45,874 nucleotides of DNA, taken from the NCBI GenBank assembly GCA_022573975.1, contig JACZSY010000003.1, positions 1-45,874 on the forward strand, given 5' to 3'. The notes below the pieces were generated by a model. The model was not told where the DNA came from, did no database searches, and was given only the letters and a program-made list of their open reading frames with translations. A program made the translations under genes and the position numbers. Position 1 is the first letter of the stretch. Each line of letters begins with the position of its first letter. Of the stretch, positions 16,872 to 45,874 are shown piece after piece. Source of the DNA: SAR324 cluster bacterium. Its GTDB lineage: Bacteria; SAR324; JACQKK01.

Positions 16872-18959
16872 GTGCCCAGACAACACCCTATCGACCATTA
16901 CCGGAACATCGGCATCATGGCCCACATCGATGCCGGCAAGACCACCACCACCGAACGTGTGCTGTTTTACACCGGGCGCAGCCACAAGATGGGAGAGGTG
17001 CATGAAGGCGCGGCCACCATGGACTGGATGGAACAAGAGCAGGAGCGGGGCATCACCATCACTTCGGCGGCCACCTTCTGCCAATGGGAGGTGGATGGCG
17101 AGGAGTATTTCATCAATATCATCGATACCCCCGGCCATGTGGATTTCACCATCGAGGTGGAACGTTCCTTGAGGGTGCTCGACGGCGTGATCGCCATATT
17201 CGATGCGGTCAACGGCGTGGAACCGCAGTCCGAGACCGTATGGCGTCAGGCGGACAAGTACAACGTGCCCCGCATGGGCTTCATCAACAAAATGGACCGG
17301 GTGGGCGCCGATTTCGACAAATCGGTCGAGAGCATGCGCGAGCGGCTCAAAGCCAAGCCGGTGGCCCTGCAAATTCCGATCGGGATCGAGGACAAATTCA
17401 AGGGCATGATCGACCTGGTGCGCATGAAAGGGATCGTTTTCCAGGAAGAAACCCTCGGGGCCAAGTTCGACGTGGGGGAAATTCCCGCGGAACTGCGCGA
17501 GGCGGCCGAACAGGCCAGGTTGAAAATGCTCGACCTCATCTCGGTGGTGGACGACGACCTGACCGAGAAAATCCTGGAAGGCCGGGAAATCGCCCCGGAG
17601 GATATCGAGCGGGCCATCCGCACCGGCACCATCGGCGGACATTTCGTACCGGTGCTGCTGGGTTCGGCCTTCAAGAACAAGGGCGTACAGCAGTTGCTGG
17701 ACGGCGTGGTGAAATACCTTCCCTCCCCCCTGGATGTCCCTCCGATCAAAGGCCTCTCCCCCGACGGCAAAACAACCATCGAACGCAAAACCAGCGACGA
17801 CGAGCCGTTTTCCGCCCTGAGCTTCAAGGTGATGAGCGACCCTTACGTGGGCCAGCTCACCTATTTCAGGGTGTATTCGGGGAAGATCGCCCAGGGCATG
17901 CAGGTCTTCAACCCGGCCAAGGGCAAAAAAGAGCGGGTGGGGCGCATCATGCGCATGCACGCCAACAAGCGCGAGGAGGTGAGCGAGGTGTACGCCGGGG
18001 ACATCGCCGCGGGCATCGGCCTCCACGCCAATACCGGCGACACCTTCTGCGACCCCAACCACATCATCGTGCTGGAAAAGATGGATTTTCCCGAACCGGT
18101 GATCGACATCGCCCTGGAGCCCAAAACCAAGGCCGACTACGAGAAAATGGGCACGGCCCTGCAGCGGCTTACCCAGGAAGACCCCTCGTTCCGGGTGCAT
18201 ACCGACGAGGAGACCAACCAGACCATCATTTCCGGCATGGGCGAGCTGCACCTGGAAATCATCGTGGACCGGTTGAGACGCGAGTTCAAGGTGTCCAGCA
18301 GCGTGGGCAAGCCCCAGGTGGCCTACCGCGAAACAGTCACCAGGCCCATTGAAGTCAACAACAAATATGTCAAGCAGACCGGAGGGCGCGGTCAATACGC
18401 CCATACGGTGATCAAGGTGGAACCCCTGGCTCCGGGTTCGGGGTTCGAGTTCGAAAACAAGATCGTGGGGGGCAATATTCCCAGGGAATACATCCCCGCG
18501 GTGGAAAAGGGATTGCGCGAGGCGTTGTCTTCGGGGGTGATGGCCGGATATCCCGTGGTGGACTTGCGGGTGACCCTGGAAGATGGGTCCTACCACGATG
18601 TGGATTCTTCGGAAATCGCCTTTAAGATTTGCGCCTCCATGGCCCTCAAGGACGCCATGCGCAGGGGCAGGCCGGTTTTGCTGGAGCCGTTCATGAAGGT
18701 CGAAGTGGTCGTTCCCACCGATTACATGGGAGAGGTGATGGGCGATCTCAACTCGCGCCGCGGCCACATCAAGGGCATGGAGGAACGCTCGGGTGCCCAG
18801 GTGATCGGGGCCGATGTGCCCCTGGGGGAAATGTTCGGTTATTCCACCGTGCTGCGCTCCATGTCCCAGGGCCGCGCGACCTTTACCATGCAGTTTTCAC
18901 ATTATGAAAAAGTGCCCGGTTCGGTTTCGGATGAACTGTTGGCCCGAAAAGCGGGATGA
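16872..18959 (+). CDS. fusA: Elongation factor G
   Basis: [27 protein letters not shown]; GTG start. Confidence 0.99.
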
Positions 18960-19040: not shown

Positions 19041-20237
<1,197 letters not shown>

Positions 20238-38080: not shown

Positions 38081-38452
38081 ATGGAAATCCACAAACCCCA
38101 ACGCGATAAACTCGGTGTCGGAAAATGGGACCTCACCACGACTCGCTATATTCCGTTGGGCGGCGGCTCCCGCTCCCGGCTCCCGGTTTACGACGATCCG
38201 ACACAAAGGCGGTATGTCGGTTTCGTCGGAATTGACGAATTCCTTTCCGCGGATATCTCCATGATCCCCACCCTGTATCAATTCCTGGGCGGGAAACCCG
38301 TGTTGCAGGAGGGAGACGCCGGAAAATTCACCGCCATGCTGCTCGGACAGACCATGGAGCGCCTGGAGGCGGCGACTTTGGCCATGGCGGATTCGGCGCC
38401 GGTGCTCGAGGAGGAGGAAGACGAAGAGGAGGCCGGCAATCCCGGCGATTAG
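38081..38452 (+). CDS. Hypothetical protein with acidic C-terminal tail
   Basis: 123-aa ORF with host-like codon usage; GGAG upstream; no recognised motif. Confidence 0.7.
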   Translation: MEIHKPQRDKLGVGKWDLTTTRYIPLGGGSRSRLPVYDDPTQRRYVGFVGIDEFLSADISMIPTLYQFLGGKPVLQEGDAGKFTAMLLGQTMERLEAATLAMADSAPVLEEEEDEEEAGNPGD

Positions 38453-38793
38453 GCCGATTTCGGAGGCTTCGGCCGGGAGGGCGACCCTTTCCCCGTGATT
38501 TCCCTTCCCCCGGTTTCAGTCCGGGGGGTTCCCCGAGCCGCCGTGGTTCGAGCCTGCCGTGGCGTTCCGGCGGCCCCTTCCACCGCGCCCAACAGTTCCA
38601 GCATCGTCAGGCCCTTGCCCGAACCGCCGGGGAGGCGTCCATCGCGTTTCCAGCGTGTGACGGTTTTCGGGGAGACCCCCAGCATTTCCGACAATTCCAT
38701 GTTGTTGAAGTGGCGGAACAGGCCGCGGAAAAATGCCTCCACGTCGTCACCTTCATCCAATTCAATCTTTAAAGCGCCCAGTTCCAATCGCAT
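38449..38793 (-). CDS. Small helix-turn-helix protein (HTH_17/MerR-like)
   Basis: ELSEMLGVSPKTVTRWKRDGRLP; ATG 38793 after GGAGGA. Confidence 0.8.
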   Translation of the reverse strand: MRLELGALKIELDEGDDVEAFFRGLFRHFNNMELSEMLGVSPKTVTRWKRDGRLPGGSGKGLTMLELLGAVEGAAGTPRQARTTAARGTPRTETGGREITGKGSPSRPKPPKSA

Positions 38794-38863
38794 GGTTGTA
38801 TTCCTCCGGCTGAAATGTTTCGTGTTCAAGGGGAATGAAAACAGGCTCTGCGGTATGTATACA

Positions 38864-38892: not shown

Positions 38893-38994
38893 TCCCCTTG
38901 GCCAAGGCCCTAATTGACCGGACATCCAATTAATGGTTGAGTAAAAAAAACCGTGCGATACCAGAAGGTTCACTCCTTGAAGAGGAATTCCACA

Positions 38995-39462
38995 ATGGGA
39001 GAGTTGATTCACACCTGCAAAATCAAGATTATCCGGGACAAAGGACCCGTGCGGCGGGCCTTCATCGAGCATTTCAAGGAACCTGTGTTCTACGGCATCC
39101 ATACCGCCATCGCCGATTTTTACGGGGTTCAACCCGAAGAGGAGTATCCGGCCACCCTGGACCACATGATATCCGCCATCGGCGCCTGACTGACCGGCAC
39201 TTTTGCCGGCGCGCTGGCAGCGCGCAAAATCCAATTGGGCCCGGGAGAACTTTGGAGCGAAGTGGAAGGCGATCTGGAGAAGGTCGAGCGCACCATCCGC
39301 ATCACCGAGGTGCGCGTCAAATATCATCTTCCGCTCAATCGCGAGGATGAGGAAACCGCCGAGCGGGTGATGAAGGTCCATCCGGCGGGATGCCCGGCCC
39401 ACGAAAGCGTCAAGGACTCGATCCGCATCAAAATCGACCGGGAATACGAGTATCGCGATTGA
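38995..39462 (+). CDS. OsmC/Ohr-like selenoprotein (Sec65, Cys133), 155 aa
   Basis: ORFs 38953-39189 and 39235-39462 are in one frame with a single TGA (39187-39189) in LDHMISAIGA-U-LTGTFAGAL; second motif GCPAHESV; ATG after GAGGA. Confidence 0.85.
39201..39229 (+). promoter_or_regulatory. Candidate SECIS element of the OsmC-like gene
   Basis: TTTTGC...GCGCT-GGC-AGCGC-GCAAAA stem-loop, G-initial loop 26 nt after UGA. Confidence 0.6.
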
Positions 39463-39511
39463 GCCTGACCGGCCGTTCGGTCCATTCCCCACACCCCAAG
39501 CCGGAGGCTGC

Positions 39512-39964
39512 ATGGGCATCGCACTCAACCAGGCGGAAATTGACCAGTACATGCTTTCCTCTCCCCGGGGCATCCTGTGTGTTTCCCGTGAAAATCAGGC
39601 GCCGCTGGCCCTGCCCATGTGGTTCGGATGGATCGATGGGAAGGTGATGATGAACACGCTGCTCACCTCTAAAAAGGTGGAACCCATCCGAAGGAACCCG
39701 CAAGTCTCCTTTCTGGTGGAATCGGGCGAAGCGTATTTCACCCTGAAAGCGCTGCTGGTCATTGGGACGTGCGAGATAATCGAGAATCAGGACGGCGCGG
39801 AGAACTGGATGCGGCGGCTCCAGCAGAACAAGCCCCTCTACCAGGCGTTGATTCCCGCCACGTGGCCCCCGCACCTGGAGCAGCATTATGCAAAGCCCCA
39901 TGCCGCCCTGGTGATCACTCCGTCCTCCATCACCTCCTGGGATTTCGGCAAAGTCCGGCGGTAA
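39512..39964 (+). CDS. Pyridoxamine 5'-phosphate oxidase-like (split beta-barrel) protein
   Basis: PLALPMWF, SKKVEPIRRNPQVSFLVE, ITSWDFGK; GGAGG RBS. Confidence 0.85.
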   Translation: MGIALNQAEIDQYMLSSPRGILCVSRENQAPLALPMWFGWIDGKVMMNTLLTSKKVEPIRRNPQVSFLVESGEAYFTLKALLVIGTCEIIENQDGAENWMRRLQQNKPLYQALIPATWPPHLEQHYAKPHAALVITPSSITSWDFGKVRR

Positions 39965-40051: not shown

Positions 40052-40747
40052 TCAAGCGGTGGAATTGGGTGGATCGGCCGGTGCGATACAGCCGCTTCCC
40101 TCGTTGCTGGGATTGTTGACGTAGGTGCTCACGGGCACGGCCTCCATCCCCTCCCACTCACGGGAAGCCAGCAGGGAAAGGCGCTCGGGGCTTTCCCTTT
40201 CCTCCAGCTCCAGCCAGAGGGAATATTCATCCGGGAAGAGCAGGACGGGCATCCTGTGATGGATGGCTTTCATGGTGGAATTGGCGGCCGTGGTCAAAAT
40301 GGCGCAGGAGATAATCTCGGAGCCGTCCGCGCCCTGCCATTGTTCCCACAATCCGGCCATGGCAAAGGGAGCGCCATCGCCACGGCGGACATGATAGGGC
40401 TGTTTTCCATTGCCGGTTTTCGCCCATTCATAGAAGCCATCCGCGGGCAGCAGGCAGCGCCGCCTCTTGAAGGCGGAGCGGAAGCTGGGTTTTTCCGGCG
40501 CCGTTTCCGCCCGGGCGTTGATCATGCGGCTCCCCATGGCCGGGTCCTTGGCCCAGGAGGGCACCAGCCCCCATTGCAGGAACACCAATTCGCGTTCTCC
40601 CCTGACATTGCGCGCCTTCACGGCCACCACGGGTTGGCTGGGGGCGATATTGTAGCGGGGAGCCAGGGGCGGCAGGCTATCGAGCCCCAGTGAAAATTGT
40701 TCGGCCAGCGCCTTGGGATCGGAGGAAAGACTGAAGCGGCCGCACAT
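40052..40747 (-). CDS. SOS response-associated peptidase (SRAP/HMCES, YedK-like)
   Basis: N-terminal MCGRF, RYNIAPSQ, INARAET, GFYEW, IHHRMPV. Confidence 0.95.
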   Translation of the reverse strand: MCGRFSLSSDPKALAEQFSLGLDSLPPLAPRYNIAPSQPVVAVKARNVRGERELVFLQWGLVPSWAKDPAMGSRMINARAETAPEKPSFRSAFKRRRCLLPADGFYEWAKTGNGKQPYHVRRGDGAPFAMAGLWEQWQGADGSEIISCAILTTAANSTMKAIHHRMPVLLFPDEYSLWLELEERESPERLSLLASREWEGMEAVPVSTYVNNPSNEGSGCIAPADPPNSTA

Positions 40748-43031: not shown

Positions 43032-44624
43032 TCAGCGCTTTTTTTCAGGAATGCCATAGCGGCCGCGGATTCTGGCATTCACAGCCCGCATCTGGCTGGC
43101 GCGAAAAACCAGGCGCCCCCGCCCCGGTCCGGGCAGCAGTTGGACAATATGGTAACCGTTGACGGGGGAGCGCATCGCTTTCCGGAAATCGGCCAGGGTG
43201 TGGACCGGTTTTCCATTCAATTGTTTTAAAATGGCATTGTTCACGCTCTGATAGCCCAGGTTGGCCGGGTCGGGCAGCACCCGAGTGATGATCACGACCT
43301 TCTCCGGACCGGAACCATTTTTCCTCAGGTTGTTCATCACATATTCGATCACCAGGCGGGAGGGGGCCTTGTCCCTCCATTTGTCCCCCCATACCCGCAG
43401 GTAATTGACGGACAACTCCTGGAGCACCAATCCGCCGAAGACCTCGTAATCGTTGGGACGGTCGAAGCGCGGTGGATGAATCCGGTAGTCCTGGCTGGAA
43501 AAACCCCGGCGCCGCAACCGTAATTTCAACGGCTTCCCATCGCGCCGCACCTCCACGGGAAGATAGGGCTGCAACGACTCGTTCAAGGCCATCGAAAACA
43601 GGATCAACCCATAGTCCGGATGTTCGATTTTTCCCTCCGGGTCGATGGCGTATCCGTTGATCCGATGAAGAATGTCCATGGGGCGCAGTTTTTCCGACCC
43701 GGTGCCCCCGGAGAGCACCCGGCGGATCAACACCCCTCCATCGCTCATTTCGAGGCCGAAATAACTGCGCATATGGACTTGATTGAGCCTTTGCCAGGTA
43801 AACCCCCTGTGGGCGAAGCCCCGATATTCATTGCGGCGGGAAGCCTCCACCAACAACTCCATCAGGGCCCCGTTGATGGCCTGGATGCGCTGTTTGCTGT
43901 GGCTGGTGATGAGACCGACCACTTTTCCCTTCGCGGTCAGCACCTCGGCCCATCCCAGCCCCGCCATGGCGGTGATGCCGCGCATGGTGGGAAATTCCAT
44001 CAGCCCAAAGGGCGAGTTGGAGACCAAAAAATCCACGACTTCTCCCGACCCTTGCTGGAAGCGGCCGTTGGAGCGCCAGCGATTGATGACGAATCGTCCT
44101 GAGCGAATGGGCTTCGAGGCGATGGGCAATGGCCGCAGGCCCCGCCAAAATTCGGGGGCATCCACCTCCAGCAGCGCCAGGTTCAACTCATAGTCCACCA
44201 GCACGGCCCGGGCGATGAAATCGGGATAGCGCCCAAATTTCCGCACCTCCAGCAAGTTGGCGTTGCGCACCAGATCGGCCGTGGTCAATAACCGGTTCCC
44301 TTCCACCACCACCGCGTTGCCCCGGATCACGCGTTCGGCGTTCTTGTTCCAGGGCAAAATCTGGTCGAAGGCCTGGTTGGTGACCCGGATGCTGACCATC
44401 CCGTAAGCCACCGGGTTTTTTTGCCCAGCCCCGGAGCCGGTTTGGGCCAGCACGGCGGCGCCCGGCCAAGCCAGCACAGCGAACCACAGCACTGCCAGCG
44501 CCGCGCCGGTTGGCCGCCAGCCGCCCGGTAGCCAGCCGTTCAGTGGCCGGCCGTTCAGTAGCCGGCCATTCAGTAACCATCGTCCGGGGCCGATCATCTG
44601 GCGCTTCCCAATGCTCTCGATCAT
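43032..44624 (-). CDS. Deg2/Deg9-like trypsin-PDZ protein lacking the catalytic triad (pseudoprotease)
   Basis: Deg-like architecture with LLTTADLV, ELNLALL and AGLGWAE in place of TNAHV, CDLALL and GNSGG. Confidence 0.75.
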   Translation of the reverse strand: MIESIGKRQMIGPGRWLLNGRLLNGRPLNGWLPGGWRPTGAALAVLWFAVLAWPGAAVLAQTGSGAGQKNPVAYGMVSIRVTNQAFDQILPWNKNAERVIRGNAVVVEGNRLLTTADLVRNANLLEVRKFGRYPDFIARAVLVDYELNLALLEVDAPEFWRGLRPLPIASKPIRSGRFVINRWRSNGRFQQGSGEVVDFLVSNSPFGLMEFPTMRGITAMAGLGWAEVLTAKGKVVGLITSHSKQRIQAINGALMELLVEASRRNEYRGFAHRGFTWQRLNQVHMRSYFGLEMSDGGVLIRRVLSGGTGSEKLRPMDILHRINGYAIDPEGKIEHPDYGLILFSMALNESLQPYLPVEVRRDGKPLKLRLRRRGFSSQDYRIHPPRFDRPNDYEVFGGLVLQELSVNYLRVWGDKWRDKAPSRLVIEYVMNNLRKNGSGPEKVVIITRVLPDPANLGYQSVNNAILKQLNGKPVHTLADFRKAMRSPVNGYHIVQLLPGPGRGRLVFRASQMRAVNARIRGRYGIPEKKR

Positions 44625-45874
44625 GGCAGCCTCCAGGCCTGGCGAATTCCATAGCGCTTCAGAATTACCGGGTGCGCCCGCTCGGCCAGTTTGGCGTTGA
44701 GAACGAGTATCCGCTCACCCGGATCGAGTAGAATGCGGTGAAAGCCTTTCCTGGAGGCCTTGAATCCTTTCAGCACATCGCCAAGGCGCTCAATGGGAAC
44801 GCCATTGATGGACGTCACGAAATAATTCACCATTCCGACATATGCGCTGTTGATCGGATGGGGGAGCACCCGCGATATCACGATCCGCTCGATCGATTTG
44901 GCGCTGTTCTCGTAGGAAAAGAAAAATTGCCGGTACAGCAGATGCTTGTCGGCGTGCTCCCAATAATTGCCAAAGGTTTTCAGATATTCCTGATCCAGTT
45001 TCATGAACACCAACCCGGCGTAAACCACATAGGATGGGGAGGTGTCGAACTGGGAGCGCATGCGTTCGGCATCGGGGAGCTTCTGCAACGGAAATTTCAC
45101 CTCGACTGTTTTCCCATCTCGCCAAACGGTCAAGCGGACTTGTTCTCCGATCTGTTTTTCTTCCACCACCTGAATATAGTTGAGGGAATACCCGCGGAAT
45201 TTGATGGTTCCATCGGAAAGCACCGGAATGCCGTCCACGGCCATGATCACGTCGTTGGGAAAAATGAAGGACGCTCCGGAGGCTCCCGGCAAAAGCCTGT
45301 CCACCACCACGCCGGTTTCCGCATCGGGGAGTTGCAGGAAATCCCTGAAAACCGGATTCATCAAATTGCTGGTCAACGCGCCCAAATCTCCATATCCATC
45401 GTAGGTCCCGTCCTTGATATCCGATAAAAAACGGTTGATCACCGGCGCCGGAATGAAATATCCCACATCGTTGAGCCTGGTGTTGGCTTGAAAGGCCACG
45501 CCGATCACCTTGCCTTCCTGGATCACCGGGCCGCCGCTGTTCCCCGGATTGATGGCCGAATCGGTCTGGACGGCCAGGTGGCTGTCCGCTCCGGGATGGA
45601 GATAGGTGATGAATTGAATGCGCGACACGACGCCTTCGGTGCGCGAGATCTTCTCTCCGCCCGCCGGATACCCATAAGTGCGCACCCGGCTGCGCAGGGA
45701 GGGGAGGGGGCCGATCTCAAGCGGCTTCACGCCCTTGGCGAAGGCGTTCGCCCCCGCTATGTCGGTCTCGAGCTGATCGCCGATCAACACCATGTCGCCG
45801 GAGATCACGCCCTTTTTCGCGGTCCGGTCCTCGGTCAGAACCACGAAACGGGGGTCGGGAGAGGTGGAATTCCG
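44621..45874 (-). CDS. Deg2/Deg9-like serine protease with PDZ domains, 5'-truncated at window edge
   Basis: GYPAGGEKISRTEGVVSRI, QTDSAINPGNSGGP, C-terminal YVVYAGLVF; frame open to window end. Confidence 0.88.
   Translation of the reverse strand, partial: RNSTSPDPRFVVLTEDRTAKKGVISGDMVLIGDQLETDIAGANAFAKGVKPLEIGPLPSLRSRVRTYGYPAGGEKISRTEGVVSRIQFITYLHPGADSHLAVQTDSAINPGNSGGPVIQEGKVIGVAFQANTRLNDVGYFIPAPVINRFLSDIKDGTYDGYGDLGALTSNLMNPVFRDFLQLPDAETGVVVDRLLPGASGASFIFPNDVIMAVDGIPVLSDGTIKFRGYSLNYIQVVEEKQIGEQVRLTVWRDGKTVEVKFPLQKLPDAERMRSQFDTSPSYVVYAGLVFMKLDQEYLKTFGNYWEHADKHLLYRQFFFSYENSAKSIERIVISRVLPHPINSAYVGMVNYFVTSINGVPIERLGDVLKGFKASRKGFHRILLDPGERILVLNAKLAERAHPVILKRYGIRQAWRLP

Follow-up and report, generated by a model that had tools for sequence, protein, structure and literature searches.

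The window analyzed here, 45,874 nucleotides of a draft genome from the SAR324 cluster, contains on its forward strand a reading frame which runs from an ATG at 38995 to a terminal TGA at 39460-39462 and is interrupted by a single internal stop codon, a TGA at 39187-39189. Read through this codon, the frame (38995-39462, +) is a complete coding sequence of 155 residues for a predicted selenoprotein of the OsmC family, an assignment based on the translation, the Pfam match, the orthologs and an AlphaFold model. A Shine-Dalgarno-like AGAGGA, recognized by direct reading, lies at 38981-38986 (+) with the ATG 8 nt further on, and the orthologs begin at the same point with MGE... or MNQ.... The initial annotation had described two ORF fragments which share a frame and are parted only by the internal TGA, giving LDHMISAIGA-[TGA]-LTGTFAGAL with GCPAHESV 68 residues further on; translation confirmed the shared frame and returned the same residues, the context of the codon being LDHMISAIGA-U-LTGTFAGAL and the second motif being part of a longer HPAGCPAHESV. 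The TGA occupies position 65, in the column of the peroxidatic cysteine, and we read it as a putative selenocysteine (U65) on the basis of the conservation of the TGA column, the cysteine of homologous proteins and profile alignment. The presumed resolving cysteine is Cys133, encoded by the TGC at 39391-39393 (+) and located 68 residues after position 65; it belongs to the CP motif (HPAGCPAH), is invariant in 10 of 10 orthologs and aligns with Cys125 of E. coli OsmC (AGCP). Translation table 11 gives two pieces instead, one that ends at 39189 and one that covers 39235-39462, the first in-frame start past the TGA being a TTG at 39235, 15 codons on.

Fifty nucleotides downstream of the selenoprotein gene (39512-39964, +), a family match identifies a PNPOx-like gene of the pyridoxamine 5'-phosphate oxidase family; 4 of 9 relatives keep it next to the ortholog, and none of the distant loci described below does so. 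Upstream and in divergent orientation, a small ORF (38449-38829, -) presents a weak HTH_17/MerR-like match of 24 bits, below the Pfam cut-off; it is also kept in 4 of the 9 relatives and in no distant locus. The ORF beside it (38081-38452, +) gave no family match in the Pfam search. Both of these upstream ORFs recur near the ortholog in several relatives. Across the nine relatives and the distant loci, no conserved neighbor hints at the reductant.

Orthologs of the gene were found in 9 of 60 related genomes, with an identity of 52-77% over the full length. All nine present exactly one internal stop, which is a TGA and falls in the same aligned column, G-[AG]-*-L-[TV]-G-T; when the gene of the window is counted, the TGA at this column is the sole internal stop in 10 of 10 genes, and conservation at the protein level is kept in both halves flanking it. 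A search of species-representative genomes extended the family to 378 relatives, and each of the 80 loci kept out of these 378 has the TGA at the column and no other stop. The codon is thus present in 90 of 90 orthologous genes (10 close and 80 distant), and selenocysteine, as predicted from it, is the only residue that these genes show at the catalytic column, in seven or more named lineages, mostly of sediment and anaerobic bacteria. The record titles of the distant loci name Marinimicrobia, Rokubacteria, Syntrophales and other Thermodesulfobacteriota, Nitrospirae, Nitrospinaceae, Dehalococcoidaceae and Anaeromyxobacteraceae.

A sequencing error, with TGC or TGG misread as TGA at 39187-39189, had been raised as a possible refutation in the initial annotation. 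Contigs assembled from four runs of four other studies agree on the TGA, and none carries any other letter at these three positions; contigs can mask rare variants, and the four studies differ from the possible source study. None of the runs listed for this locus is recorded as RNA; two labelled metatranscriptomic were flagged as probably DNA, and one of them is among the four compared. Since the TGA column is conserved in all 90 genes and the contigs of the four runs agree, a sequencing error or a pseudogene is excluded for practical purposes. Between the TGA and the end of the hairpin discussed below (39187-39227), each of the four metagenome runs shows the summed contig depth climbing from some 16-20 to 100-237; at this place short contigs from other organisms match and then diverge on either side, so the nucleotide sequence just past the Sec codon is common to different homologs in the same samples.

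Cysteine is the usual residue at this column in more remote homologs. A search with the ortholog profile returned 801 representatives, and among the best 150 of these, 82 span the Sec column: 64 of the 82 have Cys, and the others have S (4), W (3), R (3), G (3), A (2) and D, V or L (1 each). The nine Cys-form clusters which were looked up are all automatic gene calls (JGI, ENA, Logan, NCBI), unable to write C for TGA. Two paralogs in the same genome also carry Cys at the Sec column under table 11, and the full-length Cys forms are single proteins of 150-170 residues. The two lookups proposed in the initial annotation, for Cys at position 65 in homologs and for the selA/selB/selC/selD set, therefore both came out in favor of selenocysteine: orthologous genes have TGA in 90 of 90 cases, distant representatives have Cys in 64 of 82, and a profile search of the genome found selB (356.6 bits), selA (507.5 bits) and selD (364.9 bits), each above its curated cut-off, together with a tRNA-SeC of anticodon tca. 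This tRNA lies on a contig different from that of the window; a tRNA scan of the window and of a further locus (L012) found none. The genome's selD (contig C426:3570-4493, locus L010) contains one in-frame TGA near the N-terminus (...TCGUAAK...), so that the selenophosphate synthetase is by its sequence a selenoprotein too, which constitutes an internal sign that UGA is decoded as Sec by this genome. Furthermore, both selA and selB read uninterrupted with table 11, and the gene of the window itself terminates with TGA; the codon is therefore not reassigned genome-wide. With the conserved TGA, the Cys homologs and the Sec machinery all in its favor, the selenoprotein reading is kept: we infer the insertion of selenium itself, and 38995-39462 almost certainly encodes a true selenoprotein. 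The selB model also matches two GTPase genes of the window, at 16905-17351 and 19077-19949 (+), with 37 and 190 bits, below the cut-off; they presumably encode EF-G and EF-Tu, two elongation factors.

The OsmC assignment comes from several kinds of comparison. The Pfam OsmC model PF02566 matches the read-through protein with 47.7 bits (gathering score 27.5) over residues 51-147, unbroken across the TGA. In the AlphaFold model of the 155-residue protein (mean pLDDT 78, pTM 0.71), U65 is predicted to lie in a long helix, residues 55-76. The Foldseek matches listed for this model are OsmC/Ohr-family or related putative redox-protein structures, the top ones all being OsmC or Ohr, with a best E of 1.6e-6 and a TM close to 0.5; the rmsd values are large (11-15 Å), an outcome that may be anticipated for a monomer model set against chains taken from swapped dimers. 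By its Pfam score and its predicted fold, the read-through protein is a member of the OsmC/Ohr fold family. Ohr and OsmC are thiol-dependent hydroperoxide reductases, and in E. coli OsmC we take Cys59 to be the peroxidatic and Cys125 the resolving residue. Aligning position 65 with OsmC homologs, as the initial annotation had proposed, placed it where a catalytic cysteine would be: in the profile alignment built on ten orthologs, Cys59 of E. coli OsmC (1qwi, 1nye) lines up with U65 and its Cys125, within a shared G-C-P, with C133, and U65 also falls on the Cys of 2onf, 2opl and 4mh4, these alignments to solved structures being weak (E 0.006-0.07, and 0.01-0.03 to E. coli OsmC). A single-sequence phmmer search against the PDB put U65 on the Cys of Ta0195 and, in a weak match, four residues ahead of Cys59; this latter placement has been superseded by the profile alignment, which is weak as well. 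Beside the two redox columns, R20, E48 and E50 are near-invariant and E25 is invariant among the ten orthologs.

The initial annotation had also pointed to a GC-rich hairpin with a G-initial loop 26 nt past the TGA, and this element is present at 39209-39225 (+). Its 7-bp stem GCGCGCU/AGCGCGC is formed by the arms GCGCGCT (39209-39215) and AGCGCGC (39219-39225), which enclose a loop GGC (39216-39218) with G first; counted from the TGA, the stem starts at +19 nt and the loop at +26 nt. We consider it a candidate SECIS on the basis of its folding, its stability and the conservation of synonymous sites. The 45 nt past the UGA have a folding energy of -19.9 kcal/mol, and none of the gene's 130 other windows is as low (their mean is -9.9 and their best -17.5). 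In a set of 85 distinct genes, the post-UGA 45 nt average -13.3 kcal/mol versus -8.4 kcal/mol for the other windows of the same genes, and this stretch ranks in the top tenth of the windows of its gene in 51% of the 85 and in the top quarter in 85%; because these genes are related, the figures are not a probability. The identity of synonymous codons peaks over the 12 codons past the Sec: in the close clade it reaches 0.69, where the whole gene averages 0.50 (rank 8 of 147 windows), and in the distant clade 0.75 versus 0.45 (rank 2 of 144). Among 13 sequences of the window's clade, 90.1% of the cells are paired in the hairpin; two members of the clade keep a hairpin only in a shifted register. 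In this clade covariation analysis found no pair changed on both sides, and shuffles do equally well. In the distant clade the hairpin lies 7 nt closer to the UGA, with 96.1% of the cells paired and 2 pairs changed on both sides, a modest covariation.

A hairpin of at least 7 bp occurs at that distance for 11.7% of the positions of the window and for 75 of its 667 TGA trinucleotides; at such a rate the hairpin by itself is not beyond chance. Two features of this locus do exceed chance: the TGA column, conserved in 90 of 90 genes, and the Pfam OsmC match, which spans the TGA as one unbroken stretch. In a test on the 81-nt region around the TGA, which is too coarse for this purpose, folding was no better than in shuffles (z = -0.47), and when 38900-39600 was scanned permissively against Rfam, the matches were all at chance level and none was to a SECIS family. 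Taken on its position, stability and synonymous-site conservation, and not on covariation in the window's clade, the hairpin 39209-39225 is a probable SECIS. Another hairpin, CCGGCA/TGCCGG at 39194-39209, which does fold in the gene of the window, was considered as the SECIS core and rejected: its arms are by eye unpaired in one relative's locus (L013), and RNAfold does not draw it for three other loci (L014, L016 and L020).

The way in which databases treat this family bears out the expectation of the initial annotation that standard pipelines would break up the gene. Among 116 relatives found in a collection of 5.8 billion sequences, 3 cover 97% of the query and 113 cover just 41-58% of it. 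Nineteen relatives were aligned: three are full-length with W at the Sec column, one stops just short of the column, and all 15 C-terminal pieces open right past it, with M replacing L or M. The names given to such pieces include 'OsmC family protein' and 'hypothetical protein'. Among the best 150 of the 801 representatives, 33 are N-terminal pieces which end at column 64. Five full-length entries with W at the Sec column (P0002, P0003, P0006, P0228 and P0260) come from contigs of about 1 kb; the W entries are probably gene calls made with a table in which TGA is W, and not true Trp forms.

Selenoproteins of this kind have been described before, on computational grounds. Zhang, Fomenko and Gladyshev reported in 2005 OsmC-like selenoproteins from the Sargasso Sea, with three sequences, the assignment COG1765 and the motif UXXT (PMC1088965); a GOS listing gives five Sec versus 161 Cys forms of the OsmC-like family with a UxxT motif (PMC2398784), and a 2026 review places OsmC-like selenoproteins under PF02566, again with UxxT (PMC13188914). 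The term 'hidden' used in the initial annotation therefore holds for the annotation of the gene and fails for the literature, where the kind has been known since 2005 (PMC1088965). Compared with what the 2005 paper describes, the protein of the window shares PF02566, one UGA-encoded Sec at a redox position, a SECIS just downstream (here a candidate), Cys homologs and its origin in computational prediction. It differs by its motif: against the published UxxT, the window's clade has U-[LMT]-x-G-T, or, written with its flanks, G-U-[LM]-x-G-T ... C-P. The residue at U+3 is Gly (Gly68) in 10 of 10 orthologs and in the 79 distant rows showing a residue, and Thr stands at U+4, so that the clade does not conform to UxxT; this comparison is with the motif as printed in these sources, and not with the sequences behind it. 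A full-text search of the literature returned no experimental study of an OsmC-like selenoprotein and no paper on the window's clade.

A curated model for Sec and Cys forms exists in NCBIfam, NF041052 (OsmC-related (seleno)protein). It is the best NCBIfam match of the window's protein, with 24.3 bits, under the cut-off of 95; none of 10 other clade members is above any NCBIfam cut-off, and they reach at most 28 bits on NF041052. The two Cys OsmC paralogs of the same genome (C334:6596-7015 and C319:2773-3174) score 77 and 76 bits on this model and are thus nearer to the curated family than the Sec gene is. Neither 61 relatives nor 88 genomes of the phylum yielded a match above the NF041052 cut-off. 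Relative to E. coli OsmC and Ohr, the protein has the same predicted fold and corresponding redox columns, and it differs by the predicted Sec in place of the peroxidatic Cys and by an identity of only 11-19%. In a profile search its N-terminal 50 residues, with a conserved HTS...GPVRRAFIE...YGVH, had no sequence match to OsmC/Ohr structures; this HTS...GPVRR...YGVH module, unmatched in solved OsmC structures, accompanies the motif as a mark of the clade. By both sequence and fold, the best match is 2onf, the OsmC-like protein Ta0195 from Thermoplasma acidophilum, which is uncharacterised and carries Cys at the Sec column; unlike in the window's protein, its second Cys is outside a CP motif (KYC). 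The kind, an OsmC-like selenoprotein, is thus already known, and the clade may be new. That it forms a second clade of OsmC-fold selenoproteins, separate from the published one and missed by curation, is an evenly balanced proposition, which its motif and its NF041052 score would support.

Combining these data, we propose that 38995-39462 is very likely one gene of the OsmC/Ohr family, in which UGA is decoded as Sec with the help of the 3' stem-loop 39209-39225. The UGA at 39187-39189 would be decoded by the genome's own SelA, SelB, SelC and SelD, aided by the stem-loop located in the coding sequence just 3' of it. In the protein, Sec65 would replace the peroxidatic cysteine on the long central helix and Cys133, in the CP motif, would stand in for the resolving one. 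On the model of OsmC and Ohr, Sec65 would attack a hydroperoxide and be converted to a selenenic acid, with which Cys133 would condense into a selenenylsulfide, and a dithiol reductant would then regenerate the enzyme. On this analogy, hydroperoxide reduction with a peroxidatic Sec65 and a resolving Cys133 is the activity that we favor, by a limited margin of confidence.

Several other readings of the frame can be weighed against the proposal of a single selenoprotein gene. In a draft genome of 428 contigs, one in-frame stop is how an error of sequencing or assembly would look, or else a pseudogene left by a recent inactivating mutation. Three facts make this scenario very improbable: all 90 genes, taken from independent assemblies of several phyla, have this codon at this column and no other stop, contigs from four other studies agree, and both halves are conserved as protein. 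Equally improbable is that TGA stands for Trp or Gly here (as in codes 4 or 25) or that a near-cognate tRNA decodes it, in which case residue 65 would not be Sec. The W found at the column in three full-length database entries and in 3 of the 82 representatives would fit such a reassignment, but the entries come from automatic calls on contigs of about 1 kb, probably with a TGA=W table as we infer, and Trp would then occupy a column which is Cys in 64 of 82 relatives and holds the catalytic Cys of OsmC; moreover, the gene uses TGA as its own terminator, selA and selB lack internal stops and the genome has 61% G+C. Public collections store the frame as two distinct small genes, one for an N-terminal protein of 64 residues and the other for a C-terminal protein with a start further along, and they do so repeatedly: 33 N-terminal pieces end at column 64, and many C-terminal pieces have 89-107 residues, some of them named 'OsmC family protein'. 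However, a single Pfam domain covers both halves, the Cys forms are single proteins of 150-170 residues, a start at the TTG 39235 would cut away half of the central helix (H55-76 in the model), and the database pieces begin exactly at the codon past the TGA, as gene callers would produce; two genes are thus scarcely plausible.

The choice is less clear-cut regarding function. A true OsmC-fold selenoprotein could be something other than a hydroperoxide peroxidase, for instance a thiol-disulfide or a sulfur/selenium-transfer protein, by likeness to other poorly characterised members of the OsmC superfamily. Consistent with this, the best PDB sequence match is the uncharacterised Ta0195 (2onf), no NCBIfam peroxiredoxin model is reached (TIGR03562 gives 13.2 bits versus a cut-off of 85.8), the identity to characterised OsmC and Ohr proteins is just 11-19%, the catalytic Arg and Glu of Ohr/OsmC are not placed in the sequence, and there is no conserved redox partner close by, the PNPOx-like downstream gene being kept in just 4 of 9 relatives. 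Against it, both catalytic Cys columns of OsmC are filled, by U65 and C133, and both are invariant. Sec-containing peroxidases, moreover, usually carry Sec at the peroxidatic position, which is the position predicted for U65. We consequently regard a function other than hydroperoxide reduction as rather unlikely, though much less so than the three readings above, and retain the putative Sec-dependent peroxidase.

The gene represents a well-supported addition to the selenoproteome of this genome, and its relatives show that annotation misses this clade systematically: hundreds of species-representative genomes contain it, yet it is stored as 64-residue N-terminal and 90-107-residue C-terminal fragments named 'hypothetical' or 'OsmC family'. 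NF041052 falls short of the clade, and a dedicated model would mend the records. The Sec and Cys forms constitute a natural pair within the OsmC/Ohr fold which could be used to gauge what Sec gains over Cys. If the clade is indeed a second one, hundreds of species genomes (378 relatives) would carry a selenoprotein annotated as two fragments, and OsmC-like selenoproteins would be common beyond the surface ocean instead of rare.

Further downstream in the window, a gene for an SOS response associated peptidase (SRAP, 260.8 bits) is identified by its family match at 40052-40747 (-); an SRAP gene also lies near the ortholog in the loci of 3 of the 9 relatives (L013, L014 and L016). The window also has two adjacent ORFs with PDZ_3 domain matches on the minus strand (43032-44624 and 44621-45844, -), the second of which also has a trypsin-like peptidase domain of HtrA/Deg-like type; the two overlap by 4 bases and may be either a tandem pair or a single gene that a frameshift has broken.
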